From a bacterium (GTDB lineage Bacteria; UBP6; UBA1177), in contig JAFYIZ010000026.1 in the NCBI GenBank assembly GCA_017538365.1, positions 2,716 through 66,715 on the forward strand: a stretch of 64,000 nucleotides of DNA, written 5' to 3'. Shown piece after piece: positions 35,556 to 53,600 of this stretch (position 1 is its first letter; each line of letters begins with the position of its first letter). A program made the position numbers and the translations under genes. Under the pieces are notes generated by a model that was not told where the DNA came from, did not search any database, and saw only the letters and a list, made by a program, of their open reading frames with translations.

Positions 35556-38500
35556 TTAATGCGGAACCCCTGCATAACAGCGGACATAGCCTGCAACTTC
35601 GGAATCAGAAACAGGTGTCAGTTCACCCGAAAGGAAATCAAACAGGTAATAGTGTTTGACATATTCTCCACCTACCCGTTCAACGGAATAAGCTATCTGA
35701 GAATCAATGTCTCCGACTTCGGAATAACCGCTCAAAGAATATTCCCTGCATCTCCAAGATTCCTCCGAAAATTCTTCATCCTGCAATTCCTCTCTGTTGC
35801 TGCATACATCAGGCTTTATCAAAAGTAAGAAATATGATAAGCGTGGAATATACCATTCGTAATCCAGACCTATTTCTGTACCGCCCTCTCCATCGTCATA
35901 CATCTCATCCCCATAATCCGTGGTATTAAGATTTGAGCAGAATGCCTGAGCCTCATCTATACTTGTAACAAAATCTGATTTATAAGACCAAACCAGTTGA
36001 TCGTAATTATAAGGATCCTCGATATAGTGAGGGTATTCTATTGTTTCTTCTTCAAATTTGTGGACGCAGCGGACTCTTGAAGCCGAATGATCTTCGTCAA
36101 CCAGCCTGTGATAAGCTCTCAAGAAATCAACCACGACAAAGTAATTTTGTCCGGGTTCCTCTTCGCTCTCTTCGCCTTCAGGCAATACCTTTTTAAACGA
36201 AGAAGACCAGAGGGAATAAAGATCGCCGAAAACGGAATATTCCCCTTTCGTATTCGGGTAACAGCTGATTTCTTCTCCAAAACAAAAGCCTGACTCATCT
36301 ATCTCAAGTTTTTTCAACTCTTCAAGCGTCGGAACCTTCCAGTTCGTCGAGCCGCCTTCGTCAAGCGTTTCACAGTATCTTGCCGCTTCTATCCAGTTCA
36401 CTTCTTTGTCGGAAACTTTTGACCAGACGAGTTTGTTTTCATAGTCGATGTACGGGAATTCCTCAGGTTCCGGCAGCATTTCGTCATATACGCACCTTAC
36501 AACAATATTTGATGCGTAGTCATCCGAAAATTCAGAAACTTCACCCGTTGCAGTATTTACCGACTTAACTTTTTCAGCAGCCTGGCTCACAGCGTCGCCT
36601 GAAACAAGATTGCCGTAGTCGTGCAGTACTGATTCTCCGAGGTCGTCGTTTTTTACAAGCGTTTTGAGTTCTTCAAACGTCGGAATCCTCCATTGGTTGG
36701 AGCCGTTAAAGTTAAGGTCAAGGCACTTTTGTGCGGCATCTTCCCATGAAATCCGGCGAGAAGGATCATTTGCGAAAATCAGTCTCGATGACCATATATT
36801 GCCCTCTGAGACGCATGGCATATAACCGGTTTCATCGCACATCGGAATAGTGTTTCTCGGCCCTTTGAGTTTTGACCTGACACAGCGGACCGCAAAACCG
36901 GAATCAGAGCCGGTGTCCGAATTTTCTTCGGCGATTTTAACCGTGCCGTCACGCATATCTACGACCCACGGCTGAATATCCGCGGAATTTTCACCTATAT
37001 TTTTGTAGGATGAAGTCGAAGTCATATAAACAGCTGACATCATACCAAGCATTGCTGAAAACAAATCAGGGTCATACGGTGCCGGATAGTCAAGAAGCGT
37101 TGCAAGTTCGTTTTTGTTTGGAACTCTCCAGTCGTAATATCCTGCATAGTCAAGGTTTTCACAAAAATCGAGAGCTTCCTTCAAACTTGCAACATTGTTA
37201 CTTGGACCCCACATAAGCTGGGTTGCCTGATCAAAATCAACACTTTCTCCGTCATCCAGTTCTAAAGAGATATAATTTTCCGTATTCACATCTCCGTATT
37301 TCTCGCCGCGGACGCACATATACCCTCTTGCAACGTCCAGCAATTCGGATTTTTTCAAACTTCCGTCTATCGAATAGTAATATCCTTCAGCTGAAGTCCA
37401 GAAATCAGTGTGTCCTTTCCCGTTACCGTCCAGCTCGGGGAAATAAGCCTCTCTGACTGCATAGCCCGAGTATCTGAGATCATGATTGGCAATCGTCAGG
37501 AACTCTTTCGGACTCGGAAGTCTCCAATCATCGTGACCGTCGTAAGAAAGTTCATCGCACCGGACAGAATTTTCGGTATACAAAGCCCCCTGCTTTCCAG
37601 TGAAAAGCCATGTGAGTCCGGTAACATTGTCTTGTGTCTGCCTGTATGAAGTTTCATCGTCATCAGCCTTTTCTATTTTTGTAAAACTCTGCGGCACGCA
37701 CGATTTTCTGATCACATACTGTGCATCCTGGCCATAGAAATCATCGCCTTCCCTCGGGCATTCGATAATTTTATCTGAACCGTTTCCGCAAGTTCTCTGA
37801 CCGGTACAGACAACATTCGAATAGCCGAAAACAATAACCGGTTCTTCATCGCTGTCGTCTGCATATTCTGTATCTTCATCATCATCGTCTGTATCATCGT
37901 CATTGTTGTCAGGAACCTCGCCGGAGTCGGGTTTTTCGTCGTCTTCGGGCTCAAGCGCGATAAAGGTGTAAGCAGTAAAGTGACCTGTCGTCATCATTAT
38001 CGGATCACCTGCAGCCGAATTCATAATCGGATCGCCTGCAGCAGTAACCATGATAGGATCGCCCGCGGCACTAAGCATTATCGGGTCGCCTCCGGCACTC
38101 ATCATAATCGGGTCACCTCCTTCATTAAGCATTATCGGGTCGCCTCCGGCACTCATCATAATCGGGTCTCCCGCTTCGTTTCTGCCTGTAATCTGAACAG
38201 CAACACCGGTTTCGCTGTAGCTCCAGTCACCTTTTTCCGTATTGTAGACAGCCGCGGTTATCACTTTGTTTTCGATGTTTACATTGTTTACCATCGAAAT
38301 CAGGACAGGTTTTTTGAAAATCGTTCCTGAAGGTTCGAATTCGACGATTTTGCTTATCAGTCTGTTGCCGCCTGTGCTGCCGTAGTACATCGCGTCGTAA
38401 ATCGTCATCGTGATAGTCGTGTTCGAATCAAGAGCCTCTGCCGGAATCTCGATTGAAACCGATTCATCGGAACTTTTGATCGTTCCGCCCTCTTCGGCTG

Positions 38501-38651
38501 AAATTTCCTGTGTTACCTGCTCTGTACCCTCTGCATTTCCTTCGCCATGATCATCGCCAGGGTCAGGAACCTCTTTTGTTTTCTTGCCGCTGCAGGCCGC
38601 AACCGCAAGAATAAGAACAAAAACTGAAATCAAACTGAAAAAGCGCTTCAT
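35556..38651 (-). CDS. giant paralogous surface lipoprotein A: ZU5-like domain with GDPIM repeats, acidic linker, 5 DUF1566 domains
   Basis: Lipobox MKRFFSLISVFVLILAVAAC. GGTIKSSDESVSIEIPAEALDSNTTITMTIYD...; 7 GDPIM repeats; TTGHFTAYTF; VVCTGQRTCG..IIECPREGDDFYGQDAQY. DUF1566 signatures DDWRLPSPKEF, YDWRVPNKNEL, NQWRIPTFEEL, TNWKVPTLEEL, YEWYIPRLSYF. Confidence 0.9.
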   Translation of the reverse strand: MKRFFSLISVFVLILAVAACSGKKTKEVPDPGDDHGEGNAEGTEQVTQEISAEEGGTIKSSDESVSIEIPAEALDSNTTITMTIYDAMYYGSTGGNRLISKIVEFEPSGTIFKKPVLISMVNNVNIENKVITAAVYNTEKGDWSYSETGVAVQITGRNEAGDPIMMSAGGDPIMLNEGGDPIMMSAGGDPIMLSAAGDPIMVTAAGDPIMNSAAGDPIMMTTGHFTAYTFIALEPEDDEKPDSGEVPDNNDDDTDDDDEDTEYADDSDEEPVIVFGYSNVVCTGQRTCGNGSDKIIECPREGDDFYGQDAQYVIRKSCVPQSFTKIEKADDDETSYRQTQDNVTGLTWLFTGKQGALYTENSVRCDELSYDGHDDWRLPSPKEFLTIANHDLRYSGYAVREAYFPELDGNGKGHTDFWTSAEGYYYSIDGSLKKSELLDVARGYMCVRGEKYGDVNTENYISLELDDGESVDFDQATQLMWGPSNNVASLKEALDFCENLDYAGYYDWRVPNKNELATLLDYPAPYDPDLFSAMLGMMSAVYMTSTSSYKNIGENSADIQPWVVDMRDGTVKIAEENSDTGSDSGFAVRCVRSKLKGPRNTIPMCDETGYMPCVSEGNIWSSRLIFANDPSRRISWEDAAQKCLDLNFNGSNQWRIPTFEELKTLVKNDDLGESVLHDYGNLVSGDAVSQAAEKVKSVNTATGEVSEFSDDYASNIVVRCVYDEMLPEPEEFPYIDYENKLVWSKVSDKEVNWIEAARYCETLDEGGSTNWKVPTLEELKKLEIDESGFCFGEEISCYPNTKGEYSVFGDLYSLWSSSFKKVLPEGEESEEEPGQNYFVVVDFLRAYHRLVDEDHSASRVRCVHKFEEETIEYPHYIEDPYNYDQLVWSYKSDFVTSIDEAQAFCSNLNTTDYGDEMYDDGEGGTEIGLDYEWYIPRLSYFLLLIKPDVCSNREELQDEEFSEESWRCREYSLSGYSEVGDIDSQIAYSVERVGGEYVKHYYLFDFLSGELTPVSDSEVAGYVRCYAGVPH
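37992..38177 (-). repeat. in-frame 27-bp tandem repeats encoding (A/G)(A/G)GDPIMxx, 7 copies
   Basis: NEAGDPIMMSAGGDPIMLNEGGDPIMMSAGGDPIMLSAAGDPIMVTAAGDPIMNSAAGDPIMM. It shows up on the + strand as a spurious HxRI(A/T)-type repeat ORF. Confidence 0.9.
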
Positions 38652-38779: not shown

Positions 38780-41700
38780 TTACATAGACGTCGGCAGGCA
38801 TTCTTTTAAATCATCGGACCATTCGAACTCGCCGTCGCAGCTGCACTCATATTCCGATGCTGATTTAGGCAAGCATTCTCCGGTAGAATGTACCGACAGA
38901 TCGGCACACGGTTCATCTGCACACGGATTTACACATTTATGCTCTGCTGCTGTCCAGAATAAGCCTTCATCTTCATCGCAGCTGCAGTTGTATTCTTCTG
39001 CCGACATTGCAGAGCATTGTCCGGTAGAATGTACCGATTCTGCAGCACACGGATCACCTTCGCACGGATTCAGGCATGCCGAACCGTTCCAGAGGTAATC
39101 GGGAGCACAGCCGCACTCATACGTCGTTTCCGATACAGGTTTGCAGAGTCCCGTGGAATGCAGAACCGAGCCGCACGGATCAGTCGAACAGATGCTTGCG
39201 CAAATTGAACCGTTCCACTCGTAAAAATCAGGACAAATGCACTCGTAAGTTCTTGCGCTGTCATTCTCGACGACATTGCAGCGCGCAAGTCCGTTACAAG
39301 GATCGTCTGCACACGGGTTGGAACCGTCGGAAACACAGCGGACTCTGTTCGCATAAGTCACATCTATTGGATAAACATCTATTTCTGCAAAATAAAAGCG
39401 GTAGAGTTCATCGTCGTAGTCGACAGCCCACAGATAGTCGATATCGCCGAAAAGCGAATATTTTCCTGTAACATCAATAGGACACGGAGCTTCCTCTTCA
39501 GTGCAGTTTCTGACAATTGTTGAAACTTCATCGAATGTAGGCATTCTCCACCAGTGGTCAGGATCACCTTTGGAAAGTTCATAGCAGTATTCCTTTGCTT
39601 CCTGCAGTTTCAGGTAGTCAAAAGAAATATCGGACCATGTAATTCCTGTTTCCGGATCGGTATAAGGAGTCATTTCATAAGGAAGGCTTTCGTCGAGAAC
39701 GCATCTCTGGAAAAGCATTGAAACGGGAAGCTCTGAAGGCAACCCCAGGCTGCCGTATTCCGTGCTCAAAGCCCATAATCCATAACCATAATAATTATTA
39801 CTGTCATTAGCATTGAATGTAGCAGAAATCATAGCTCCGTAATCGTAGAAAAGAGTTTGTGACGGTTCGTCGCCGGAACATGGTCCTTCACTTTCACATG
39901 AACTCTGGAAACATTCATCCGTTATCCCGCAGGAGCCGTCTTTTTTGAGTCTTTCACTTGTAACTATCGAACGGATTTCATCTATAGTCGGAAGTCTCCA
40001 TTTGTTAGAACCCTTTTCTCTCAGGTCGCGGCACATTGAGGCAACATCTTCTGAATAAATCATCCTGCTGTCGCCATAGCCGTAATAGCCGTAGCCCTCA
40101 TAGAGATACGATTTGTTGAAACCCACAAAAATTTCGGGGTATATTACTGAAGACCAGATCGTTTCGTCTGCAGCCTGGCATGGTGCCACTCCGCTTTCAT
40201 TGCAAGCAGGGAAATCGGTTTTTTCATCAAGTTTGGATCTGACGCAACGGACGGAAATAGGCAGTTCGCTGTGTCTCATGATGTAAAATCCTCCGGCGGT
40301 CTTGCCGTTGAAGGTGTAAGCAGTTCCGTCGGTCATATCGACAACCCACTTGTATTCACCGGCACTGGTCGAACTCCAGAAAACATCGGCTTTCATGCCC
40401 GGGAATGAAGAAACGACATCCGATCCCAGCTTTGAATGGTCGATAAGCGTTACAAGTTCGTTTTTGTTGGGAAGTCTCCAGTCGCTGAAACCGGCATACT
40501 CAAGGTTTTCGCAGTAGTTAAGAGCATCTTTCAATGTTTCAGCCTTGCCGGAATCTTTCTGCCAGTACAGGTTGGTAGATGAATCAAAGACCATTTTATC
40601 GCCGCTTCTGGTGATTGAAGCGTAGTTGTCTGCATTTACTTTTCCGTATTCTTCACCGCTGACGCATATAAGAATGCCGTCGGAAAAAACGCTCTGGTAA
40701 CTTTCATAAGCTTTCGGAGGAATCGTCATGCCGTATTCCAGCGCATACATGTAGTTTTCGATTGAACTCCAGAGATAAATGCCGTATTTATCGCTGTAGG
40801 AAGAACTGTTGAATCCGTCATCGATGACCTTTTTGAAAAGGATCGGATCAGCCGGAACACCGCGGACAAGCCTGTCGTTCCATGCAAGAGTCATAAGTTC
40901 CTTAGGTGTCGGAAATCTCCAGTCTTCCTTGCCGCCGTAAGAGATGTCGCAGCCTTTTTTAACTCCTTCATAAGTTCCCTTTACGCCGAGATAAAGCCAT
41001 GTAAGACCGGTGTTGTCATCCTTTATTTCGACGAAATCGTTTTCAAGCACTTCAGGTTTTACGACTTCTTTCATCTTATGATTCGGAACGCACGATCCTC
41101 TTACCGCATACTGTGCATCCTGACCGTAGAAATCATTTTCCTCTTCAGGGCACAGAATCTGGGAACCTTCATCGTCAGTACAGATCGTCATGCCGGTGCA
41201 GAGAACTTTGGAATACAAAAGTTCAGGTTCAGGTTCCGGAATAACCGTGTCTGTGTCACCGTCGTCAGGTTCAGTTGTGTCGGTATCGCCGTCGTCAACG
41301 GGCTCGTCGTCATCTTCTTCGGCAACGGGCTCATCGTCATCTTCTTCGGCAACGGGCTCGTCGTCATCTTCTTCGGCAACGGGCTCATCGTCATCTTCTT
41401 CAGCAACAGGCTCGTCATCATCTTCTTCGGCAACAGGCTCGTCGTCTTCAGGTTCTTCTTCAACATCAATAAGGAAAAATGCATAAGCGGTAAAATGACC
41501 TGTCGTCATCATGATCGGATCGCCCGCACCGGCTTTCATAATCGGATCGCCCGCTGCAGTTACCATAATCGGGTCACCTGCCGCACTCAGCCTTGCGCCA
41601 TTACTCTTCATGATCGGATCACCGGCAGCATTCAGCATTATCGGGTCACCCGCAGCAGTTGTCATAATCGGATCGCCTCCAGGGGTTTTTCCATCAATTT

Positions 41701-42166
41701 TAACCGCAGCACCTGTCGGGCTGTAGCTCCACTCACCTTTCGTTTCCCTGTAAACCGCTGCTGTAACCGCTGTTTTCTTAGCTTTTCTGAGTGAGTCTTC
41801 ACCGCTTCCGAGACTTATCATCGAAATCAAAACCGGCTTTTGGAAAATTATGCCGGACGGCTCGAATTCTACTATTTTACTGATGACGGTTTCGCCTTCA
41901 GTGCCCGGATAATTCTTGGCTTCGTAAACTTTCATCGTGATAGTTGTGGCGGTGTCAAGAGCTTCTCCGGGAATTTCTATCGAAACACTTCCGTCGGAAC
42001 TTTCGATTTTACCGCCCTCTTCGGCTGGAATTTCCTGGGAGACCTCTTCTTCAAGCACCGGTCCGGTACTGTTGTTCTCGTTGTTTTCTTTTTTCTTCTT
42101 GCCGCCGCAGGATGCAACCGCAAAAATCAAAACAAAAACAAAAATAAGGCTAAAAACCCGTTTCAT
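38780..42166 (-). CDS. giant paralogous surface lipoprotein B: ZU5-like/GDPIM, acidic repeat linker, 4 DUF1566 domains, 4 C-terminal EGF-like modules
   Basis: MKRVFSLIFVFVLIFAVASC. 6 GDPIM repeats, then TTGHFTAYAF and (EEDDDEPVA)x5. Signatures EDWRFPTPKEL, SDWRLPNKNEL, NKWRLPTIDEI, HWWRMPTFDEV. C-terminal NPC..DPC....STG.C.....Y.C.C modules. Confidence 0.9.
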   Translation of the reverse strand: MKRVFSLIFVFVLIFAVASCGGKKKKENNENNSTGPVLEEEVSQEIPAEEGGKIESSDGSVSIEIPGEALDTATTITMKVYEAKNYPGTEGETVISKIVEFEPSGIIFQKPVLISMISLGSGEDSLRKAKKTAVTAAVYRETKGEWSYSPTGAAVKIDGKTPGGDPIMTTAAGDPIMLNAAGDPIMKSNGARLSAAGDPIMVTAAGDPIMKAGAGDPIMMTTGHFTAYAFFLIDVEEEPEDDEPVAEEDDDEPVAEEDDDEPVAEEDDDEPVAEEDDDEPVAEEDDDEPVDDGDTDTTEPDDGDTDTVIPEPEPELLYSKVLCTGMTICTDDEGSQILCPEEENDFYGQDAQYAVRGSCVPNHKMKEVVKPEVLENDFVEIKDDNTGLTWLYLGVKGTYEGVKKGCDISYGGKEDWRFPTPKELMTLAWNDRLVRGVPADPILFKKVIDDGFNSSSYSDKYGIYLWSSIENYMYALEYGMTIPPKAYESYQSVFSDGILICVSGEEYGKVNADNYASITRSGDKMVFDSSTNLYWQKDSGKAETLKDALNYCENLEYAGFSDWRLPNKNELVTLIDHSKLGSDVVSSFPGMKADVFWSSTSAGEYKWVVDMTDGTAYTFNGKTAGGFYIMRHSELPISVRCVRSKLDEKTDFPACNESGVAPCQAADETIWSSVIYPEIFVGFNKSYLYEGYGYYGYGDSRMIYSEDVASMCRDLREKGSNKWRLPTIDEIRSIVTSERLKKDGSCGITDECFQSSCESEGPCSGDEPSQTLFYDYGAMISATFNANDSNNYYGYGLWALSTEYGSLGLPSELPVSMLFQRCVLDESLPYEMTPYTDPETGITWSDISFDYLKLQEAKEYCYELSKGDPDHWWRMPTFDEVSTIVRNCTEEEAPCPIDVTGKYSLFGDIDYLWAVDYDDELYRFYFAEIDVYPIDVTYANRVRCVSDGSNPCADDPCNGLARCNVVENDSARTYECICPDFYEWNGSICASICSTDPCGSVLHSTGLCKPVSETTYECGCAPDYLWNGSACLNPCEGDPCAAESVHSTGQCSAMSAEEYNCSCDEDEGLFWTAAEHKCVNPCADEPCADLSVHSTGECLPKSASEYECSCDGEFEWSDDLKECLPTSM
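41296..41452 (-). repeat. near-perfect 27-bp tandem repeat (about 5.8 copies) encoding EEDDDEPVA
   Basis: caacgggctcgtcgtcatcttcttcgg is iterated with only g/a and c/t wobble differences. Confidence 0.9.
41507..41685 (-). repeat. 27-bp GDPIM repeats, 6 copies (one spacing interrupted)
   Basis: PGGDPIMTTAAGDPIMLNAAGDPIMKSNGARLSAAGDPIMVTAAGDPIMKAGAGDPIMM. Confidence 0.9.
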
Positions 42167-42317: not shown

Positions 42318-45300
42318 TTAGTTCGCGTCATCAGGCGCCACAACTACGCAGCGGACACGACTGTATTCATAAGAGTCCATCCTGCCCTCTACGAAATCAA
42401 ACACATAATTGTCTTGCGCCTTAAGAGAGAACATATCGCCGAAAAATGAGTAACCGCCGAAAGTGTACTGACTGCATCTGCCGCTGGTAGCTCCCGTCAA
42501 AAAGTCGTTTTTGTTGCTGCATACCCTTTTGTTGATAATAGAAGCCAGCTCTGATGTTGTCGGAAGTTGCCACTGTGTTTCTCCGCCGTAACCCTCTTCA
42601 TTGAGTCCGTTACAGTATGCGGCAGCATCATTCGAATAATAATATGATTCATCCGATACTTTTGACCAGATGAGATCAGGCAGCGTATACGGGAAATCCA
42701 ATTCTTCATCAAATTCCGGAACATTCTCGGAATCTGAAAGACTTCTTACGCAGCGGGCTCTGGCAAAATTTTCATCGTAAAAGGAGTGACTATCCTCTGA
42801 AGCAGTCATAAACTTAAACAAATTTACATAGTCAGAATCACCGGAAGATATATCAGAAGACCAGAGATTGCCGAGATCTCCTAAAACGGAATATTCACCG
42901 GTTGTATTAGGAACACAATCACCATTGGGGCAGTTTGTAACAAGAGTCCGAAGCTCGTCCATAGTCGGAACTCTCCAGTTGTTCGAACCGCCTTCGACAA
43001 GGTCAGTACAGTATTTCGCGGCATCATACCAGTACGGGAGATATTTTTTCGAAAGCGACGACCAGACAAGTCCGTTTTCCGAATCGGTATACGGGAATTC
43101 AGCCGGACTCGGTAAGGAAGCATCCTTTATACATCTTGACTGGCTGGAACCATAACCATCATGATAGTTTACAGTACGCTTTACAGAATCATTCTTCATA
43201 TTTACGAACCAAACAGCATCATGACTATCTGTATTGGTAAAAGTTCCTGAGAAATAAATTCCGCTATCAAAAAGGCTCGACATAACCTTTTCTCTGCCTA
43301 CTTCCGGCGAGCACACTGCTTCATTGAAGCACTCTTCACTTGCGTAATCGAAACATGCGTTCGTAACAAGGCATTCTCCATTGGTTTTGAGAATGTCGTC
43401 TGCCGGGAAAAGCGTGCGGAGTTCATCGATTGTAGGAATTCTCCATTGCGTTATGCCGCCTTCATTGGATTCACGGCACTGAATTGCCTTTTTCTCCCAT
43501 GTCATCGGGACCATAGGATTACTATTGAAGCTATAGCGGTAATCTACGTCCGCCGAAGACCATACATAACCGGTAGAAGCATCTTCGCAGGGCCCGATTC
43601 TCGATGCGTCACATATTGGAATCGTTCTTCCGGCTGCCAGCGGCTGAGTATCGCTTCTTACGCAGCGGACAGACAAATCTTCTCCAAAATAATAAGAGTC
43701 ATATTCTCCAACCCTGCCGCTTGCCATATTGACTGCGACCGGACCGGCTGCATTGCCGTAAGAAACCTGGGAAGTCGAAGTGAGCAGGGTCTCCGAAGTC
43801 ATTCCCGGGAACAATGATGCCGGATCAGCTTGTGAATAGTCGACAAGTGTAATAAGTTCGTTTTTGTTGGGAAGTCGCCAGTCGGAATACCCCGCATACT
43901 CAAGGTTCTGGCAGTAAGCAAGTGCATCTTTCCAATTTTTGACAGGTTTGGAATTCTTCTGCCAAAGGAGATTGGTCGATGAATCGAAAACCACTACATG
44001 ACCGTTTATCGTCCTGGAATCATAATTCTCGGCATTGACTTTGCCGTATTCTTCACCGCTTACACACATAACACCGTTAAGGGCGCCTCCGGTTGGAGTA
44101 GAAGTATTAGTCATAAGAGAAGCGTAATCCGAATTGTAGACCCAGAAATCATTTTCGTTGTCTGAAGACTGATTGTGTTCAGCAGCCCAATAAGACCAAT
44201 TTCCCCAATTACGGAAATAGTAATCATTGGCAGCCGAAGCAAATTTGTCATGGTCGGAAATACTCAAAAGTTCTTTGACCGTAGGAAGACGCCATTCGTG
44301 TCCGCCGTAAGTATAAGTAAGAGCCGCACAATTGCTCTCAGCCGCAGAATGGCTGGCACTGTCATCAAATACGATCCATTTCAAGCCGGTGTTTTCGTCA
44401 AGCACGAACTCGTAAGTTTCACCTGTTTCTCCGTCTCTGAGGACTCCGTTTCTAATGTTTGCGTTATTGCTTCCGCCGCGCAGAATATTTCTCAAACCGG
44501 TTCCTTCGCCCTCTTCAGGGTCTTCTTCCACTGCAACCGGTTCCGTTTGTATGCTGTATTTATGCGGAATACACGATTTGGTTGCAACGAACTGTGAATC
44601 CTGACCGTAAAAATCTTCTCCCTCGGCAGGACAGTCGATAGTCATTTCTCCGTCGCTGCACTTCGTCAAACCTGTGCAGAGAACTTTGGAAAGAACAGGA
44701 ACAGGCGGTTCCGGAACAACGATGTCTTCGTCAACATCGGGAGTTTCGTCTTCATCAACATCAGGAATTTCGTCTTCGTCAACTACAGGTTCGTCATCGT
44801 CTTCGACAACAGGATCGTCGTCATCTTCGACAACAGGTTCGTCATCATCGTCTTCGATAACAGGTTCGTCATCATCGTCTTCGACAACAGGTTCTTCGTC
44901 TTTATCGGTAACTTCTTCATCTTTTTCGGGCTCTTCCGGCTCTTTCTCGGGTTCTTTCGGATCAATCGTAATGAATGTATAAGCCGTGAAGTGACCTGTC
45001 GCCATCATGATCGGATCTCCTGCTGCCGCATTCATGATCGGATCTCCTGCTGCAGAATTCATTATCGGATCTCCTGCCGAAGCCATCATGATCGGGTCTC
45101 CCGCCGCAGAGTTCATGATCGGGTCTCCTGCTCCTGTCGTAAGATTTCCGTCACTCAGCATGATCGGATCTCCTGCTGCAGTCGTCATTATCGGATCACC
45201 CGCCGCATCTCTGCCCATGACTCCGTAAGCGCCGTGCTCGCTGTAGCTCAGCCTGCCCTCTTTTTCATAGAAAACAGCAGCCGAAACTATCTTGTTTTCA

Positions 45301-45653
45301 AACGCTTCGGTCGCAGTCATCGAAATTATGACAGGTTTTTTGAAAACCGTGCCGCTCGGCTCGAATTCGACAACTTTACTGACAACTTTCATTCCTCCGA
45401 TTTTATCCGGGATTGCGGCATAACCCGATACATCGTAGATCGTCATCGTAATCTTTGTGTCTGAATCAAGGGCATCTGCGGGAATTTCGATAGAAGTCTT
45501 TCCGTCGGAACTCTCAACCTTGCCGCCCTCTTCGGCTTTGATCTCTTTCGATACCTGCTCTTCATACACAGGGTTTTCCTTCTTACTGCCGCCGCAGGAA
45601 GCGACTGAAAGCATCAATACAAAAACAAAAATCAAACTGAAAAAACGTTTCAT
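42318..45653 (-). CDS. giant paralogous surface lipoprotein C: ZU5-like/GDPIM, acidic linker, 5 DUF1566 domains
   Basis: ATG at 45653 (MKRFFSLIFVFVLMLSVASC) is preceded by AGGAGG. The longer ORF start at 45698 would overlap the upstream gene. 7 GDPIM repeats, then ATGHFTAYTF. Signatures HEWRLPTVKEL, SDWRLPNKNEL, TQWRIPTIDEL, NNWRVPTMDEL, TQWQLPTTSEL. Confidence 0.9.
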   Translation of the reverse strand: MKRFFSLIFVFVLMLSVASCGGSKKENPVYEEQVSKEIKAEEGGKVESSDGKTSIEIPADALDSDTKITMTIYDVSGYAAIPDKIGGMKVVSKVVEFEPSGTVFKKPVIISMTATEAFENKIVSAAVFYEKEGRLSYSEHGAYGVMGRDAAGDPIMTTAAGDPIMLSDGNLTTGAGDPIMNSAAGDPIMMASAGDPIMNSAAGDPIMNAAAGDPIMMATGHFTAYTFITIDPKEPEKEPEEPEKDEEVTDKDEEPVVEDDDDEPVIEDDDDEPVVEDDDDPVVEDDDEPVVDEDEIPDVDEDETPDVDEDIVVPEPPVPVLSKVLCTGLTKCSDGEMTIDCPAEGEDFYGQDSQFVATKSCIPHKYSIQTEPVAVEEDPEEGEGTGLRNILRGGSNNANIRNGVLRDGETGETYEFVLDENTGLKWIVFDDSASHSAAESNCAALTYTYGGHEWRLPTVKELLSISDHDKFASAANDYYFRNWGNWSYWAAEHNQSSDNENDFWVYNSDYASLMTNTSTPTGGALNGVMCVSGEEYGKVNAENYDSRTINGHVVVFDSSTNLLWQKNSKPVKNWKDALAYCQNLEYAGYSDWRLPNKNELITLVDYSQADPASLFPGMTSETLLTSTSQVSYGNAAGPVAVNMASGRVGEYDSYYFGEDLSVRCVRSDTQPLAAGRTIPICDASRIGPCEDASTGYVWSSADVDYRYSFNSNPMVPMTWEKKAIQCRESNEGGITQWRIPTIDELRTLFPADDILKTNGECLVTNACFDYASEECFNEAVCSPEVGREKVMSSLFDSGIYFSGTFTNTDSHDAVWFVNMKNDSVKRTVNYHDGYGSSQSRCIKDASLPSPAEFPYTDSENGLVWSSLSKKYLPYWYDAAKYCTDLVEGGSNNWRVPTMDELRTLVTNCPNGDCVPNTTGEYSVLGDLGNLWSSDISSGDSDYVNLFKFMTASEDSHSFYDENFARARCVRSLSDSENVPEFDEELDFPYTLPDLIWSKVSDESYYYSNDAAAYCNGLNEEGYGGETQWQLPTTSELASIINKRVCSNKNDFLTGATSGRCSQYTFGGYSFFGDMFSLKAQDNYVFDFVEGRMDSYEYSRVRCVVVAPDDAN
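45003..45209 (-). repeat. 27-bp GDPIM repeats, 7 copies
   Basis: DAAGDPIMTTAAGDPIMLSDGNLTTGAGDPIMNSAAGDPIMMASAGDPIMNSAAGDPIMNAAAGDPIMM. Confidence 0.9.
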
Positions 45654-45679: not shown

Positions 45680-48600
45680 TTACTCTTGAATAACACACTC
45701 TTCACCATCCCAAAGGGCATTAGCTGTGCAGCCGCAGCTGTAAACACCGGCTTCGCTCGTGCATGTTCCGTCGGAATTTTCAATTTCCAGACAGGGATTA
45801 TCCTCACACGCATTCGGATAGGAAACGCAGCGGACGTATTTCTTTCTGTCTCCGTAGAATGATCCGTCTTCATATCCGGCAACCAGAACCTGACCGGTAG
45901 TAAAATCGGCATAGAAATGGTAACCGGTTCTTCCGAGGTATGTGGAAGCAAAAATTCCGAGATCGCCGAATACCGGGAAATGACCTTCAAAAGCAGGATT
46001 GTCACAACCGCCCAAAGCGACACTGACACCCGGATTTCCCTGATTGTTGTTTGTAGGTCTTATAAATGTCGAACGTCCTTCTTCACAATCGAGAATACTT
46101 GCAAATTCCGCAAGGTCTGGGACTCTCCACTCGGTCAATCCTTCGTATCCGGCTCCGTTATTCATTGCATTCAGACTCTCGCAGTATGCTACAGCGTCTG
46201 AATGATTTGTGAGAGGTCCTGATTTTTCAGACCATAAAAGATTCGAATCCTCATCGTAATACGGAGCATCAATGATCGGATCAGTCTCGGGATCATCCGT
46301 TGATCTGACGCAGCGGACTTTAGCATCGGAATAAGAATTTATATTCTCGGTAATACCTTCCTGATAACCCGTCATAAAATCCAGGACATTCAAAGACAGG
46401 GCAGTTTCAACTGATATTGTTGAAGACCAGAGTGCGGCAAGTTCCGCGAAAACTGAATAGTTGCCGGTCAGATTGGGTTCACAATCGTCTCCGTCACAGC
46501 TCTTGACGAGAGTCTCGACTTCTTCCAATGCCGGAACTCTCCAGTTGTCCGAATTGCCTTCGACAAGATCTCTGCAGTATTCAGCCGCCTCCATCCATGT
46601 CATATCGCCTTTTGAACGCGAAGACCAGATAAGTTCGTTTTCCGGATCGGTGTACGGGAATGTAATATCCGGAAGAGATTCATCTTTTACGCAGCGGACA
46701 GTTATCATCGGATACAAATCATCGTTACGTGCGTAAGAGACGATCGAACCGGTGAAGAAATCAACACCCCATGCATGGTTTTCATCGTCGATCATCGTTG
46801 ATGAGACCATATATGTGTCATTGTAGAAAATAGATTCTATCGGAGCACCCGTCCTGCATTCTTCATCAACGTAACATGCCCCGGCATTACATGTGTCGGC
46901 AACATCGCAGTCTCCGCCTGTTGTGAGAGCATCACTCTTGAGTATCGTGCGGATCTCGCTGATTGTCGGAAGCCTCCACTGAGAAATACCGCCGTTATTT
47001 GATTCTCGGCACATTCCGGCAGCCATGACATAGTCGGGATCGTAACTCCCAGTGTTAATATTCTGCGACCAGACAATACCTGTTTCGGGGTCTTCGCACG
47101 GCGTATAGCCGCTTTCGTCGCAAACAGGAACCGCCTGATATTCGGCGAGATCATCATTCCTGACGCAGAGAGTATACGCAGTTGTAACATTTCCTTGAGT
47201 GTCACCGACACTGAACAGCGTTCCGCCGCCGACATCAATGATGAAAGGACCTTCAGATCCGCCGTAAGTCTGAGCAAATGTCGAAGTCCAGTAATTTCCT
47301 CCGATGATATTCTGGAAGTCACTCTTGTTGTCACCAAAACCTTTACCTGTATAGTTAAGAACAGTCGCAAATTCGTTTCTGTTCGGAAGTCTCCAGTCGG
47401 AATATCCTGCATACTCAAGGTTTTCGCAGTAAGCGAGAGCCTGAGACCAGCTCATGTTGAGATTGTCCGCAGCAGCTTTCCACATAAGGTCAGTCGCGGA
47501 ATCCGTAACAACGGTGCCTCCGGAAATATTTTTCAAAGTAAATGTGCCTGAAACACCGTATTCTTCTCCGCTTACACAAGCAAAAGAAGCTGAACCATCT
47601 TCTTTACTCTCATATTGCATGTGACCGTAACCGATATCCATAACCAGGACTGCATCGTCTCCTGTTTTCTGATTCTGGTAATATGTGCCTGACCAGTATA
47701 TAGTAGGCGAAGCAAAATCCCATCCGAAGTATGCCATGCGGAGAGCCGGATAGCTTGTTCCGCTGTCAATAATGCTCATAAGCTCTTTCGCGGTCGGAAG
47801 TCTCCATTCGCGACCGTCACCTGTGTCAAGCGTGTCGCAGAATGTATATGCATTTTCCCATGTTCCGCCGTTTGAATAGAGATACCATCTCAAACCTGTA
47901 GAGAGATCGTCGACTATATTGCAAGTGTCATTATCCTGAATGCAGTTTCTTCCCTCAGATATTTTTTCGTAAGTCTGCGGAGTGCAGGACTGTCTTGCAG
48001 TGTAGCTTGCATCCTGACCGTAGAATTCCTCGCCTTCAGCCGGACAGTCTATGACGTCTCCTTCAGCGCCAAAGCACCATGTCTGACCTGTGCAGAGGAC
48101 TTTTGCGACAGGTACGCTGCATTTCACAGTATTTTCGTTCCATTCATATCCTTCAACACACTGGTATGCGCAGTCGCCTTCCTCAGCATAGTGAGCCGTA
48201 TAGTACGGATATCCCTTGCCGTTCCAGGTCGGGATGTATGTGTCTCCGTTTACCCATGCAGCATTTTCGGGAAGCTCGCCGCAGGATTCAGCCGGCTTTG
48301 TATCGGACTGACAGCTTTCTTCTTCGTAGTGGTAGTCGGTGGAACACTCGTAAGTACATTCCTCTCCCTCATCCTCGAAATATGTTGCCGCAGGTTCGGT
48401 TGACCATGCTTCATCGATCCAGTGAGGTGTGTAGGTCGAAGCTACCCATTCTGCGTTATCCGGAAGGTTCGCGCACTCCTGCTCTTCACCGGTATTTGAT
48501 TTGCAGACGCTGTCTTCGACGTGCTGAGCATCCGTGCATGCACAGGTTCCGTTAGTCGCAAACCATGTGAAAGTCGGTTTACACTGATAAGCGCAATCAC

Positions 48601-50620
48601 CTTCTTCAGCGTAGTTAGCCGATGCGCTCGAATAATCCTCGCCAGTCCATTCCGGTATGTATGTGTTTCCGTTCACCCACTGTGCGTTTGCCGGAAGAGT
48701 TCCGCAGGATTCAGCCGGCTTTGTATTGGACTGACAGCTTTCATTCTCGTAGTGGTAGTTGGCAACGCACTCGTAAGTACATTCCTCTCCCTCATCCTCG
48801 AAATATGTTGCCGCAGGTTCTGTCGACCATGCTCCATTACTCCAGTGAGGTGTGTAGGTCGAAGCTTTCCAAGCCGCGTTAGCCGGAAGGTTAGCACAGG
48901 TCTTCGCCGTACCGGTATTGGGTGTGCATACGTTGTCTTCGACGTGCTCTTCATCCGTGCATGCACAGGTTCCGTTAGTCGCAAACCATGTGAAAGTCTG
49001 TTTGCACGTAAATGCGCAGTCGCCTTCTCCTGCATAGTTTGCCGATGCGCTCGAATAAGCATTGCCGTTCCAGGTCGGAATATATGTGTCACCGTTTACC
49101 CATGCAGCATTTGCAGGAAGTGTGCCGCAGCTTGCAGCAGCCTGGGTATTCGATTTGCAGACGCCGTCTTCAACGTGTTCTGTCGACTGACATTTACAGC
49201 TTGAATCAATCCAGCTGTAGGTTGATTTACATTTGTAAGCGCAGTCGCCCGATTCAGCGTAGTTTGCAGTTGCGCTCGAATAAGCACTGCCGTTCCAGGT
49301 CGGAATATATGTGTCACCGTTTACCCATGCAGCATTTGCCGGAAGTGTGCCGCAGCTTGCAGCAGTCTGTGTATTCGATTTGCAGACGCCGTCTTCAAGG
49401 TGCTGTTCATCGGTACATTTACAGCTTGAATCAATCCAGCTGAAGGTCGGTTTGCATTTGTAAGCGCAGTCGCCCTCCTCAGCGTAGTGAGCCGATGCGG
49501 AAGAGTATTCCTCGCCGTTACGGGTCGATTCGTATGTATCACCGTTTACCCACTGCGCATTTTCGGGAAGCGTGCCGCAGGAGCGTGTTACAATCTGACA
49601 GTCGTCAGAGCAGGAAGCACCGATTCCTTCGCCTTTGCCGTATTCAGGATCAGCCTTATCACAGGCTTCGTTGCTCTGTTTCGTGCCGTCACCGCAGTAA
49701 GCAGCTGCACCGGCCTGTTTTTTACATTCTTTCGTGCAGACTTCGCAGCTTTTTTCGCCGTAAACGCAGTCGGTTTTGCCGTTCTCTTCGCCCCGGTCAC
49801 ACTCTTCACCTTCCTCAACAACACCGTTTCCGCATTCTGGGGCATTGTCTTCATCGGGAGAGACGTCTTCATCGCCGTCATTCGTATCAGCATCAGCATC
49901 GCCGGTACCTGCCTGAGAATCAGATTCTTCAACAACTATAAAAGTGTAAGCCGTGAAGTGACCGGTCGTCATCATAATCGGGTCACCCGCAGCAGCGTTC
50001 ATGATAGGATCACCCGCTGCATTCGACATGATCGGGTCGCCTGCTGAAGCAAGCATGATCGGATCACCTGCTGAAGCAAGCATGATCGGGTCACCGGCAG
50101 CATTCATCATAATCGGGTCGCCTGCAGCATTCAGCATGATAGGATCGCCTGCAGCAGTCTGCATGATCGGGTCGCCCGCCGCATCTTTGCCGACAAGAAT
50201 AGCATACTCACTGTGTTCGCTGTAGCTCCATGCGCCTTTAGCTTCGTTGTAAACAGCGGCTGCAACTACTTTGTCTTTGATTTCGTTGTTTGCCGTCATC
50301 TTGATGATAATCGGTTTTTTGAAAACCGTGCCGCTTGGTTCGAACTCGACGACCGTGCTTATAACTTTTTCGCCTTTCGCCGTAGAATAGTGCGAACTTT
50401 CGTAAACACTTACCGTGATAGTAGTATTTGAATCAAGAGCATCTGCAGGAATATCAACGGCGACCGATTCATCGGAAGTCGATACCGTTCCGCCTTCTTC
50501 AGCGCTGATTTCCTTTGAGACCTTCTCCTTAACGTCATCTTTTTTCTTCTTTTTGTCGCCGCAGGATGCGACCGCAAAAACCAAAATGAAAATCAAAACC
50601 AAACTTAACACACGTTTCAT
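45680..50620 (-). CDS. giant paralogous surface lipoprotein D (1646 aa): ZU5-like/GDPIM, Myxococcus-type Cys-rich repeats, 7 Cys-module repeats, 5 DUF1566 domains, EGF-like end
   Basis: MKRVLSLVLIFILVFAVASC. 8 GDPIM repeats, then TTGHFTAYTF. CGNGVVEEGEECD and YCGDGTKQSNEACD repeats. Seven SCGTLP.NA.WVNGDTY.. / CANLP.NA.W..STYTPHW modules. Signatures REWRLPTAKEL, SDWRLPNRNEF, SQWRLPTISEI, DNWRVPALEEV, TEWRVPDLAEF. Confidence 0.9.
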   Translation of the reverse strand: MKRVLSLVLIFILVFAVASCGDKKKKKDDVKEKVSKEISAEEGGTVSTSDESVAVDIPADALDSNTTITVSVYESSHYSTAKGEKVISTVVEFEPSGTVFKKPIIIKMTANNEIKDKVVAAAVYNEAKGAWSYSEHSEYAILVGKDAAGDPIMQTAAGDPIMLNAAGDPIMMNAAGDPIMLASAGDPIMLASAGDPIMSNAAGDPIMNAAAGDPIMMTTGHFTAYTFIVVEESDSQAGTGDADADTNDGDEDVSPDEDNAPECGNGVVEEGEECDRGEENGKTDCVYGEKSCEVCTKECKKQAGAAAYCGDGTKQSNEACDKADPEYGKGEGIGASCSDDCQIVTRSCGTLPENAQWVNGDTYESTRNGEEYSSASAHYAEEGDCAYKCKPTFSWIDSSCKCTDEQHLEDGVCKSNTQTAASCGTLPANAAWVNGDTYIPTWNGSAYSSATANYAESGDCAYKCKSTYSWIDSSCKCQSTEHVEDGVCKSNTQAAASCGTLPANAAWVNGDTYIPTWNGNAYSSASANYAGEGDCAFTCKQTFTWFATNGTCACTDEEHVEDNVCTPNTGTAKTCANLPANAAWKASTYTPHWSNGAWSTEPAATYFEDEGEECTYECVANYHYENESCQSNTKPAESCGTLPANAQWVNGNTYIPEWTGEDYSSASANYAEEGDCAYQCKPTFTWFATNGTCACTDAQHVEDSVCKSNTGEEQECANLPDNAEWVASTYTPHWIDEAWSTEPAATYFEDEGEECTYECSTDYHYEEESCQSDTKPAESCGELPENAAWVNGDTYIPTWNGKGYPYYTAHYAEEGDCAYQCVEGYEWNENTVKCSVPVAKVLCTGQTWCFGAEGDVIDCPAEGEEFYGQDASYTARQSCTPQTYEKISEGRNCIQDNDTCNIVDDLSTGLRWYLYSNGGTWENAYTFCDTLDTGDGREWRLPTAKELMSIIDSGTSYPALRMAYFGWDFASPTIYWSGTYYQNQKTGDDAVLVMDIGYGHMQYESKEDGSASFACVSGEEYGVSGTFTLKNISGGTVVTDSATDLMWKAAADNLNMSWSQALAYCENLEYAGYSDWRLPNRNEFATVLNYTGKGFGDNKSDFQNIIGGNYWTSTFAQTYGGSEGPFIIDVGGGTLFSVGDTQGNVTTAYTLCVRNDDLAEYQAVPVCDESGYTPCEDPETGIVWSQNINTGSYDPDYVMAAGMCRESNNGGISQWRLPTISEIRTILKSDALTTGGDCDVADTCNAGACYVDEECRTGAPIESIFYNDTYMVSSTMIDDENHAWGVDFFTGSIVSYARNDDLYPMITVRCVKDESLPDITFPYTDPENELIWSSRSKGDMTWMEAAEYCRDLVEGNSDNWRVPALEEVETLVKSCDGDDCEPNLTGNYSVFAELAALWSSTISVETALSLNVLDFMTGYQEGITENINSYSDAKVRCVRSTDDPETDPIIDAPYYDEDSNLLWSEKSGPLTNHSDAVAYCESLNAMNNGAGYEGLTEWRVPDLAEFASILDCEEGRSTFIRPTNNNQGNPGVSVALGGCDNPAFEGHFPVFGDLGIFASTYLGRTGYHFYADFTTGQVLVAGYEDGSFYGDRKKYVRCVSYPNACEDNPCLEIENSDGTCTSEAGVYSCGCTANALWDGEECVIQE
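48115..49590 (-). repeat. long in-frame tandem repeats (225-bp units and a 423-bp two-module unit) encoding 7 Cys-rich modules
   Basis: ggtcggaatatatgtgtcaccgtttacccatgcagcatttgc... at 49073 recurs at 49298, a period of 225 bp. gattcagccggctttgtat at 48285 recurs at 48708, a period of 423 bp. Long stretches are nearly identical. Confidence 0.85.
49970..50185 (-). repeat. 27-bp GDPIM repeats, 8 copies
   Basis: DAAGDPIMQTAAGDPIMLNAAGDPIMMNAAGDPIMLASAGDPIMLASAGDPIMSNAAGDPIMNAAAGDPIMM. Confidence 0.9.
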
Positions 50621-50689: not shown

Positions 50690-53600
50690 TTACTCCTCAA
50701 TATATCTTACGCAGCGGACATAACCTGAATTTTCATAACCCCATGACTCGTTGCTTCCGCCTACAACTTCGCCTGTCGTGAAATCAAAGAGATACGGATA
50801 GATACTTTTGCTGCCCCATTCGTCCTCACCTTCGTTTCTGTCTGAAGTCCAGAATTTGCCGTAATCGTTGAATATAGAATGACTCTTGAATGTATAGTCG
50901 CAGAAACAGCGTGCAGTCTCTCCTTCACTAAGAATAACCTCTTCACTGCATGCACCGCTGCAATCCATATCCTCTTCGACGAGAAGATATAAATAAGACC
51001 AGACATCAGGCAGGCGCCATTCGCTGGAACCCTCGTACTCTTCCTCGTTCAGAGAATTACAGAAAGCTTCTGCGTCAGCGATAGTACCTGTTATCAGTTC
51101 AGATTTCTTTGACCATGCCATATCTTCAACATAATACGGGAGAGTCCCTTCAAAATTGTCGGGGTCTTCAAGCGGATCAGAAACGGAACGGACGCAACGT
51201 ACCTGCAGATCGGCATAGCTGTCCGAAAGATTTTTGTTCTGATCTGTCATAAGATCGATAAAATCAAGCGTCGTCATGTAGGACCCGTCAAAAATATCGC
51301 TGCTCAGAAGAATCGGCATATCCGAGAAAAGCGAATATTTTCCGGTAAGATCGGGAGCACATGCAGATGTACCCTCAAGATCGCAGTTTCTTACCAGCTT
51401 CTGCAATTCCTCCAGAGTCGGAACTCTCCAGTTGTCGGAACCGCCTTCAACAAGCGTTCCGCAGTATTCAACAGCATCCCTCCAGTCGCCTTCTTCCGAA
51501 ATTGACGACCATACGAGGCCGTTCGTCTCGTCGGTGTAAGGTGCCTCCTTCGGATCTTCCAACGTGTTGTCAAGAACACATCTTACGACAAGCTGCGGCG
51601 CATATACTGTCGAAATATCGGACATTCCGCCTGTCGTCATATCTATCGTCCAGACATTCCACTGGTCACGCTCATAGTCCGCATTGGCATTTGAGAATGT
51701 TCCCGAAAAAAGGATTCCGTAGTCGCGGAGTGCTGTTTCATGTCCTGCTAATTCGGCTGAAGTGCAATCCGACTCATAAGCGCTGTAATCTGAATGTTCA
51801 ACCGTAACTCCGCATGTTCCGCCTGTTTTGAAAACATCGTCGGTGAAAAGAGACCTTACATCGTCTATTGTCGGGATTCTCCACTTTCCGCCCTTCATAT
51901 TGCGGCAGTCTTTTGCCACATTCGACCAGTGGACGGATTCCATTTCATACTCATTGTAAATCAGTCTCTGCGACCATGTGATGTTGTTTGCGTCTCTGCA
52001 CGGAGAATAGCCGTCTGCGCCGCATGCCGGTATTCCGTTTTCGGGATAGGGCGTAAGATCGCTTCTGACGCAGATGACAGAATAAGTTTCACCTGAATTG
52101 ATTCCTCTTGTCCTGGATTTAACCTGAGGATGATCCGACATACGCAATCCCATTTCGCCGGTTTTCATATCGATCGCAACTGCGCCGATAGTCATCGTGA
52201 AAGTCGATGTAACAAAATTTTCAGCCGGCAGTCCCGGGAAAGATGATGCAGGATTCGACTTGGAATAGTCAACAAGGCTCGCAAGCTCGTTTTTGTTCGG
52301 AAGTCTCCAGTCGTCATGACCTGCGTAATTCAAGCCTTCGCAGTATGCAAGCGCCTCAGGCCACGTTTTTCCGCTGACGGAAGTTTTCTGCCAGAAAAGA
52401 TTGGTTTTCGAGTCAAAAATCATCTCCTGACCGTTTTCATTCTTCGAAGTATAGTCCGAAGCCGCAACTTCACCGTATTTATCACCTTTAACACAGAGCA
52501 GAGCTTTATAGTCTGACTGACCATCGCTGCCGATACTGCCGGTATAGGTATCGTAGTAGAAATTCTTATCCGAAGTCCAGAATGACTCGGTTCCTTCCCA
52601 ATCCACAGTAAAATATACCGATTTGATCTCTTTGCCGGAATTAAGGTTGTTGAAAATATCGTGGTCGGCAATAGTCAGGAACTCGGCAGGTGTCGGCATT
52701 CTCCATCCGCCGCCGGCATATTCTGAAAGAGTTTCTTCGCAATACGGAGCTATATCATCGTAGGATTCTCCGCTTTCCGATGTGAGGATCCATGTAAGCC
52801 CGGTATTATTGTCCTTTATCTGCTGATACGGCGTGACATCATTTTCCGCCTTTTCAATTTTCTCAAAACTCTTCGGAACACATGATTTTCTGAAAATATA
52901 TCCCGCATCCTGACCGTTCAGCGCCCCGCCTTCTTTCGGGCATTCATCCAGAACACCGTTTTCGCCGAAGCAGTTTCTGAGTCCGGTGCAGATGACTTTG
53001 GAATAAAGAGGTTCCGGTTCAGGGATTACGTCTTCGTCACTATCGTCAACCGGATCTTCATCGGGTTTGTCACCGTCGCCTTTCTTCTCAACCGCAATAA
53101 AAGTGAAAGCGGTGAAGTGACCGGTAGTCATCATAATCGGGTCACCCGCAGCAGCGTTCATGATCGGGTCACCTGCAGCAGTAGCCATAATCGGATCTCC
53201 CGCTGCACTCATCATGATAGGATCACCTGCCGCATTCTGCATGATAGGATCGCCTGCCGCATTCAGCATTATCGGATCACCCGCAGCACTAGTCATAATA
53301 GGATCTCCGGCCGCGTCTTTGCCGACTTTTACAGCCACACCGGTCTCGCTGTAGCTCCACTCACCTTTAGCTTCATTGTAAACCGCTGCTGTAATGATTT
53401 TATTTTCAATGTTTTCGCCGTTTTCCATAGTAATCAGAACAGGTTTTTTGAAAATCGTACCGTTCGGCCCGAACTCTACGACTTTGCTTATAACTTTTTT
53501 ACCGTCCGTTCCGGCATAACCCGATGCATCGTAGATCGTCATTGTTATGGTCGTGTCGGAATCGAGAGCACCGGCCGGAATATCAATTGACGTTTTTCCG

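Follow-up and report, generated by a model that had tools for sequence, protein, structure and literature searches.

Lipid-anchored, lectin-bearing proteins with a predicted autoproteolytic ZU5 module in the rumen candidate phylum UBP6

The lipoprotein array

The 64-kb stretch of DNA studied here (assembly GCA_017538365.1, contig JAFYIZ010000026.1, positions 2,716 to 66,715), referred to below as the window, comes from a bacterium of the candidate phylum UBP6. Its open reading frame (ORF) list contains five paralogous lipoprotein genes, A to E, which lie head-to-tail on the minus strand. The subject of this analysis is the N-terminal module (N-module) of the five encoded proteins, which is predicted to have the fold of a ZU5 domain and which ends in a His-Phe-Thr (HFT) motif, a candidate site of self-cleavage.

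All five proteins begin with MKR... and share the same order of parts: a signal peptide with a lipobox, whose Cys20 is invariant in the paralog alignment, a module of ~115 residues, a run of nonapeptides, the segment TGHFTA(Y/F)(T/A)F, a linker, a Cys-rich segment and the Lcl_C domains. The features are listed below, with positions in the window and protein lengths in amino acids (aa).

35556..38651, minus strand: gene A, a lipoprotein of 1031 aa with four Lcl_C (DUF1566) domains; an ORF with Pfam matches to ZU5 (28 bits) and Lcl_C (E 3e-53)
38592..38651, minus strand: signal peptide and lipobox of gene A (MKRFFSLISVFVLILAVAAC, Cys20), read from the sequence
38178..38522, minus strand: ZU5 core of gene A, residues 44-158, with PF00791 above the cut-off
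37989..38177, minus strand: seven AAGDPIMxx repeats of gene A separating the ZU5 core from the cleavage strand, seen as 27-nucleotide (nt) tandem repeats
37974..37982, minus strand: His224-Phe225-Thr226 of gene A with the predicted scissile bond F225|T226, from sequence and alignment
37953..37973, minus strand: post-cleavage beta strand AYTFIAL of gene A, residues 227-233, the sole predicted tether of the ectodomain, from its equivalent in the gene E model
37833..37949, minus strand: acidic low-complexity linker of gene A, ~39 residues
35559..37832, minus strand: ectodomain of gene A, with a Cys-rich segment and four Lcl_C/DUF1566 lectin-like domains (Pfam)
38780..42166, minus strand: gene B, 1128 aa; N-module 41468-42106, HFT 41489-41497
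42318..45653, minus strand: gene C, 1111 aa counted from MKRFF; N-module 44964-45593, HFT 44985-44993
45680..50620, minus strand: gene D, 1646 aa, with extra Cys-containing 70-aa repeats; N-module 49931-50560, HFT 49952-49960
50690..53752, minus strand: gene E, 1020 aa, residues 35-235 modelled; N-module 53090-53692, HFT 53111-53119

The span 37962-38560, singled out in an earlier note on this DNA, corresponds to residues ~31-230 of gene A. For gene C, the program-called ORF has its first codon, a GTG, 15 codons upstream of MKRFF (45654-45698) and reaches into the 3' end of gene D; judged by homology with the paralogs, the true start is likely the ATG at 45653.

The ectodomains of A-E consist of a Cys-rich segment followed by 4-5 domains that Pfam assigns to Lcl_C, i.e., the DUF1566 ectodomain of the earlier note. 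In the Legionella protein Lcl, the Lcl_C domain binds sulfated glycosaminoglycans (PMC11162425). The related members of the family carry Lcl_C or DUF6273 cargo, without enzymes. A toxin domain was sought in the array proteins with Pfam and none was found, the matches being Lcl_C and weak EGF-like hits, next to Cys-rich repeats that are unassigned. No NCBIfam model covers the N-module. Between the paralogs, the identity is 59-74% in the N-module but 35-43% in the ectodomain. The higher conservation of the N-module fits a shared processing and anchoring device.

The linker that connects the two parts varies in A-E from 23 to 86 residues, with a content of Asp plus Glu of 22-52%, and is mostly strongly acidic. 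In gene B, it contains a 27-nt repeat (41292-41446, 92% matches) that encodes (EEDDDEPVA)x5 and is far more homogeneous than the nonapeptide repeats described below. The C-terminus of gene B (38780-39300) has EGF-like Cys-rich repeats with weak matches to PF00008 and PF12947. The extra length of gene D is explained by tandem DNA repeats at 48223-49580 (423 and 225 nt), encoding modules of ~70 aa of the form 'SCGTLPANAAWVNGDTYIPTWNG..Y..A.ANYAE.GDCAY.C', which have no Pfam match.

The N-terminal ZU5 domain and its HFT motif

The N-module matches the Pfam family ZU5 (PF00791) with 28.0, 31.2, 34.3, 29.1 and 29.9 bits in A to E, compared with a gathering cut-off of 21. A profile built from the window domains and distant relatives without the repeats was searched against the sequences in PDB, where it finds ankyrin-3 (E 9.9e-9), ankyrin-2 (3.7e-8), ankyrin-1 (2e-6) and ZO-1 (1.1e-5). 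FIIND, PIDD and Nup98 were looked for among the PDB sequences with two family profiles, and only the non-cleaving ZU5 domains of ankyrin and ZO-1 were matched. The identity of the N-module to solved ZU5 domains is 12-20%.

A model of residues 35-235 of gene E was made with AlphaFold2 (AF2) from an alignment of 71 sequences, including the repeat-less relatives. The mean predicted local distance difference test score (pLDDT) is 93.1 and the predicted template modelling score is 0.87, and in the core the pLDDT is above 90. When the model is compared with PDB using Foldseek, the top 17 matches are all ZU5 domains (ankyrin R, B and G, and UNC5b; E 3e-5 to 5e-4, probability 1.0). The target TM-scores (template modelling scores) are mostly ~0.5-0.65 against single-domain ZU5 chains, and the core superposes on the ankyrin ZU5 domain with a root-mean-square deviation of ~3.3 Å over ~109 columns. 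GAIN domains (CD97, latrophilin, BAI2) rank lower, with E 0.012 to 0.37, and no SEA structure is matched among the PDB results for the N-module models. The ranking is unchanged for an earlier model of lower confidence (pLDDT 63), which was made from 16 close homologs only and in which the repeats are unreliable. Pfam, the profile comparison with solved structures and the predicted fold agree that the N-module is a ZU5 domain, an assignment made from sequence and a structural model.

Each of the proteins A-E contains exactly one HF[STC], while the composition predicts ~0.05 per 1000 residues. The motif TGHF|T and the hydrophobic strand that follows it, A(Y/F)(T/A)F(I/F), are conserved in all five paralogs. 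In the gene E model, a strand (171-178) ends at H178, F179 and T180 form a turn, and the last strand covers 181-187 (AFTFIAV), all with a pLDDT of ~96. Past this strand, the pLDDT of the acidic tail falls to ~62. In PIDD, CARD8 and NLRP1, the cut also falls in the turn that immediately precedes the last beta strand (PMC3210808). Because the PDB profile alignments end before the HFS strand, the motifs are equated from the topology of the model and from the literature rather than from aligned residues.

To follow the motif through the family, a profile of the ZU5 core, without the repeats and the HFT strand, was searched against 1.84 billion representative proteins (E <= 1e-3). Since the HFT strand had been left out, the motif could not bias the search. 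The profile matches 1862 proteins, and 53 of them (clusters) at E <= 1e-30 form the close family. All 59 domains of the close family that reach the site have TGHF[TS], 44 with Thr and 15 with Ser. In 100 distant domains, HF[STC] with a hydrophobic strand is present in 75 (44 S, 29 T and 2 C), while six have HL[ST] in a GPS-like context (CGKTDHLTNFAILL) and 19 are degenerate, having lost the His or the nucleophile. The nucleophile is thus Ser or Thr and rarely Cys in the relatives that bear the motif, and Ser or Thr only in the close family. His and Phe are two of the seven columns that are invariant over 71 close and distant sequences, and at the genomic loci that reach the site the motif is found in 35 out of 36.

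An alternative is that the N-module is a non-cleaving ZU5 domain that serves as a spacer in the structure or for protein-protein interactions, where HFT is kept since the Phe packs in the core. The nearest solved structures are non-cleaving ZU5 domains, and the 19 of 100 remote bacterial domains without the triad retain the fold signature. However, these degenerate domains also show that the triad is dispensable for folding, so its strict retention here speaks for catalytic selection. The His and the Ser/Thr are moreover as strict as the Phe in the close family (59 out of 59 domains), with the third position occupied by S or T only. Non-cleaving ZU5 domains lack the triad, for instance UNC5b has Leu where the Phe stands (PMC3210808), and bacterial HFS domains of the homologous type do cleave, see below. 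We regard this alternative as quite improbable, and a cleaving ZU5 domain as the better description of the N-module.

Most of what the earlier note had proposed for the N-module holds. Its block pattern past the lipobox is reproduced for all five proteins in the paralog alignment, and the HFT coordinates it gave are exactly those listed above. It had pointed to a resemblance to ZU5 domains, which agrees with the Pfam scores (28-34 bits), the profile search (E 1e-8) and the Foldseek ranking. The comparison with ZU5, GAIN and SEA folds that it called for places ZU5 at the top, GAIN weaker and SEA nowhere. Its reading of HFT as an autoproteolytic ZU5 site is consistent with the predicted tight turn before the last strand, as in PIDD, CARD8 and NLRP1, and the contrast it drew between an invariant HFT and a hypervariable linker is seen across the five paralogs. 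The claim that one beta strand would be the only tether of the ectodomain also fits the model, in which the strand is followed directly by the low-confidence acidic linker.

Some of the remote relatives contain more than one copy of the domain. In P0090, P0091, P0112 and P0125, 3-4 ZU5 domains follow one another in tandem, and every one of them has 'C..C..CGxTDH(F/L)TNFAILL' at its end. This sequence is nearly the same as the GPS/Stachel sequence of adhesion G-protein-coupled receptors (GPCRs), CxCxHL|TNFAVLM. Judged from these sequences, several self-cleavage sites in one chain would split such a protein into several pieces.

The GDPIM repeat insert

The ZU5 core and the catalytic strand are separated by the nonapeptide AAGDPIMxx, repeated with a strict period of nine residues (GDPIM at 161, 170, 179 ... 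in gene A) and present in 6-8 copies per protein. In the repeat-less relatives, the His follows the end of the core after a median of 2 residues, compared with 68 in the window family. The array thus represents an insertion in the stretch that leads up to the catalytic strand. One to three copies of GDP(I/R)M occur at the equivalent site in some distant relatives, which suggests that the array grew when the pre-cleavage segment was duplicated. In most arrays, the DNA of the 27-nt units is only 74-83% identical (76-77% in gene A), while the core of the peptide is essentially invariant. As the DNA units have diverged and the peptide has hardly changed, selection acts on the peptide. In the gene E model, the repeats are regular, with a short strand every nine residues and a pLDDT of 88-96.

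It can be speculated that the GDPIM repeats form a Ca2+-binding beta-roll. A further alternative to cleavage at HFT places the chemistry in the repeats themselves, as Ca2+- or acid-dependent Asp-Pro self-cleavage similar to FrpC/ApxIVA or as a beta-roll of the RTX (repeats-in-toxin) type, where Ca2+ gates the folding. The consensus xxAAGDPIM and the RTX consensus GGxGxDxUx have in common the nine-residue period and the placing of a large hydrophobic residue two positions from the Asp. The strand that recurs every nine residues in the AF2 model and the selection on a near-invariant peptide at ~75% nucleotide identity also count in its favour. When the repeats alone are searched against PDB with phmmer, the only matches are RTX blocks of CyaA and haemolysin. 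However, these matches are non-significant (E 0.02-0.06), the sequences are compositionally biased and phmmer aligns them in an ambiguous register, and the Gly-rich turn of RTX is absent from the GDPIM repeats. Finally, the relatives without repeats keep HFS, i.e., the repeats are accessory to the HF[ST] site and not a substitute for it. FrpC-like Asp-Pro self-processing was on the same ground ruled out as the main mechanism, and we give repeat-based chemistry as a whole hardly any credence compared with cleavage at HFT.

Repeats of this type also occur outside the large lipoproteins. P0025, P0026, P0032 and P0033 are apparent lipoproteins of 113-117 aa that consist almost wholly of GDPIM repeats, and three of the four (P0025, P0026 and P0032) terminate precisely in ...GDPIM. 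In three independent contigs, the gene for P0032 (L039:4001-4351, L040:1875-2225 and L041:2793-3143) lies directly downstream of a gene for an Rce1-like/CPBP intramembrane protease (PF02517). The existence of stand-alone GDPIM proteins indicates that the repeat is an independent module.

Proposed processing, known systems and distribution

The earlier note knew of no comparable bacterial system, but the concept of bacterial ZU5 self-cleavage is already known, as it was predicted in 2012 and demonstrated in 2026. Zhang et al. (2012) placed GPS and Nup98 in the ZU5 superfamily that they defined, and predicted ZU5 autopeptidases located N-terminally in bacterial toxins and also in surface adhesins (PMC3482391). 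The earlier statement that Nup98 is structurally unrelated to ZU5 is thus also at odds with this work. As in A-E, the ZU5 peptidases of Zhang et al. are N-terminal in a large secreted protein and are predicted to cut it at its base on the cell surface. However, the RHS repeats, SpvB/beta-propeller, toxin domain and immunity gene of the polymorphic toxins are absent in A-E, where the cargo is Lcl_C/DUF1566. That study is computational only, and a lipobox or a repeat insert is not described in it.

The experimental demonstration comes from the MAIN (Microbial Autoproteolysis INducing) domains of bacteria and archaea, which are GAIN-like and have YfkN of B. subtilis as prototype (Brogan & Rudner, May 2026, bioRxiv 10.64898/2026.05.12.724683). 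The cut between F and S of HFS was located by Edman degradation, the change of S to A kills cleavage and S to T rescues it, and the fragments co-purify until they are separated by SDS (sodium dodecyl sulfate) or heat (bioRxiv 10.64898/2026.05.12.724683). A T770A mutant of a further MAIN domain was made in that study too. The family, defined by PSI-BLAST from YfkN, has ~15,000 homologs with adhesion, lectin or enzyme ectodomains, its structural (DPAM) labels are 'ZU' and 'GPS', and release by shear force has been proposed (bioRxiv 10.64898/2026.05.12.724683).

A-E and the MAIN proteins share a signal peptide with an envelope anchor, an anchor-adjacent beta sandwich of the ZU/GPS type, HF(S/T) in a beta-turn that leads into the last strand, large ectodomains of the adhesion or lectin kind and a proposed non-covalent tether with release by shear force. 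However, the order of the parts is inverted. In 'virtually all' MAIN proteins, the signal peptide is followed by the ectodomain, MAIN and a C-terminal sortase or SLH (S-layer homology) anchor, while in A-E the anchor comes first, followed by ZU5, HF|T, the linker and the ectodomain. With the inverted order, the anchored fragment would keep the sandwich and the released fragment only the strand. MAIN anchors are of the sortase, SLH or cell-wall-binding type, whereas A-E have a lipobox, and lipoproteins are unmentioned in the MAIN paper. A-E further differ in the insert of 6-8 nine-residue repeats ahead of the cleavage strand and in their host, the candidate phylum UBP6 and not Bacillota. The core-only profile retrieves SLH-anchored multi-enzyme proteins of MAIN-type architecture with HFS, for example P0119 with a GDSL lipase, Big, two ZU5 domains and three SLH domains, which provides an indirect link to MAIN. 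A protein search with a mixed profile aimed at named YfkN-like proteins gave only 10 uninformative fragments.

The eukaryotic systems resemble A-E to different degrees. PIDD is cleaved at HF|S446 and HF|S588, right behind each ZU5 domain, and the FIIND of NLRP1 and CARD8 at SF|S, and the fragments stay together (PMC3210808). The ZU5 fold and a site after Phe, at a Ser/Thr nucleophile before the last strand, are shared with A-E, but PIDD, NLRP1 and CARD8 act in cytosolic signalling and carry UPA and death-fold domains, while A-E are predicted to be extracytoplasmic, lipid-anchored and lectin-bearing. The GAIN domain of adhesion GPCRs (HL|T, Stachel) is likewise a sandwich with its site in the turn before the last strand, a strand that is held non-covalently and released by force, and the 'C..CGxTDH(F/L)TNFAILL' of the remote bacterial relatives is similar to its GPS. 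However, the helical GAIN_A subdomain and the Cys pairs of GPS are absent in A-E, where the N-module is all-beta and free of cysteine past the lipobox. Further, the GAIN strand stays on the membrane receptor with its seven transmembrane helices, which A-E do not have, while the strand of A-E would depart with the released ectodomain. The SEA domains of mucins and SEAL of RsgI also cleave themselves close to the membrane, in a loop between strands, and hold an adhesive or carbohydrate-binding ectodomain non-covalently that is thought to be separable by force. As both fold and motif are different, this is an analogy and not a homology.

We suggest that A-E are probably lipid-anchored adhesin-like proteins with a membrane-proximal autoproteolytic module of the ZU5/GAIN ('MAIN') type. 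By homology to the experimentally cleaved domains, autoproteolysis at HF|T is very likely. The protein would be exported by Sec and lipidated at Cys20. Folding of the ZU5 sandwich would then strain the Phe-Thr bond in the tight turn ahead of the last strand, and the His would activate the Thr hydroxyl, so that an N-to-O acyl shift followed by hydrolysis severs the bond. One product would be a lipidated fragment of ~200 residues, comprising the ZU5 body and the GDPIM solenoid and ending in ...TTGHF. The other would start, in gene A, with the strand TAYTFIAL, followed by the acidic linker and the lectin-like Lcl_C domains (4-5 in A-E). The two would be held together solely by the new N-terminal strand (7-8 residues) inserted in the sandwich. 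A load on the bound ectodomain, or its unfolding, could extract the strand and release the ectodomain, i.e., the module could act as a mechanical fuse or shedding device. For gene E, cleavage would yield the semi-tryptic peptide TAFTFIAVEK and an uncleaved chain the spanning peptide ...TTGHFTAFTFIAVEK. Fold, motif geometry, conservation and architecture are described in the sections above; that the proteins are surface exposed, form a lasting non-covalent complex and are released by force is what we infer beyond them.

The lasting complex is the point where another explanation differs. The ZU5 domain might cleave with a tether that is too weak, in which case the lectin ectodomain would be shed constitutively and the lipoprotein would be an export or maturation intermediate. 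This is the model of Zhang et al. (2012) for the N-terminal ZU5 domains in RHS toxins (PMC3482391), and past the scissile bond there is only a single strand of 7-8 residues before the disordered acidic linker. However, the fragments stay associated in every tested relative (CARD8, PIDD, GAIN and MAIN), and the post-cleavage strand A(Y/F)(T/A)F(I/F) is conserved, hydrophobic and modelled inside the fold at a pLDDT of 96. Constitutive shedding is thus unlikely in our view, and we prefer a cleaved protein whose two fragments stay together.

Some considerations weigh against this interpretation. Among eukaryotic ZU5 domains, many are non-cleaving (ankyrin, ZO-1 and UNC5b). The insert of 60-70 residues before the catalytic strand is unprecedented in tested domains and could alter or regulate cleavage. 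Due to the reversed order, the complex may not be equally stable in A-E, where only one strand would go with the released part. The tie to YfkN and the tested MAIN domains is indirect, via the MAIN-type architectures retrieved by the profile. The genes come from an uncultured organism whose close relatives are known only as metagenome-assembled genomes (MAGs).

In a more speculative scenario, the inverted layout is a device with a function of its own and not the mirror image of MAIN/GAIN, and it concerns the parts after separation by force. The lectin ectodomain would bear an exposed 'Stachel-like' strand (TAYTFIAL...), and the anchored ZU5 domain would keep an empty groove beside a possibly Ca2+-dependent solenoid. 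Paralogs that share near-identical strands and grooves could then re-capture or exchange ectodomains, giving a reloadable display; alternatively, the solenoid might adjust the force or the ionic conditions needed for release. We hold either version to be a long shot.

What differs from the known systems is the inverted order, the lipid anchor, the repeat insert and the expansion of paralogs in a candidate phylum of the rumen. If cleavage is confirmed, autoproteolysis of the MAIN type, established for wall-anchored proteins of Gram-positive bacteria, would also be present in lipoproteins of an uncultured phylum of the rumen. The module would then also work in the opposite orientation, as predicted by Zhang et al. 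(2012), for which we found no experimental test in the literature; nor did we find there experimental bacterial work on ZU5 in lipoproteins or Rhs proteins. The family is large, counting 53 clusters at E <= 1e-30, at least five copies per genome and many relatives of ~350 residues that lack the repeats. If it does cleave, it would therefore play a major part in the way these rumen bacteria bind to particles or host glycans and let go of them. The clade-specific GDPIM insert before the catalytic strand would provide a natural experiment on the tuning of the fuse.

The family was found at 38 genomic loci, all of them in MAGs from the ruminant gut or samples similar to it, with the labels UBP6 (UBA1177 and UBA1209), 'uncultured Spirochaetales' (RUG11946 and RUG12558) or 'bacterium' (from yak, goat, buffalo, deer and reindeer). 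There are multiple copies per genome. The inverted, lipobox-proximal layout extends beyond this clade, as many distant proteins of ~350 residues start with a signal peptide or lipobox and continue with ZU5, HFS and a small domain at the C-terminus. The window is colinear with a locus in the MAG RGIG2292 from goat duodenum (L018), at 91-94% identity. There, gene A is absent at the syntenic position, and the gap between gyrA and gene B is ~456 bp compared with ~3240 bp (35441-38679) in the window. The number of copies in the array thus differs between close strains.

The array is flanked by gyrB and gyrA on one side and by housekeeping genes (prmA-like, dapF-like, PBP1a and IF-2) on the other; a dedicated export or processing partner was sought among these neighbours and none was found. 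Elsewhere in the window, upstream, the large ORFs at 11658-12986, 18796-20253 and 27029-28894 have no Pfam assignment. A fourth one, on the plus strand at 13000-18384 and encoding 1794 aa, has a weak local match to a Met-zincin (DUF4953) as its sole Pfam signal.

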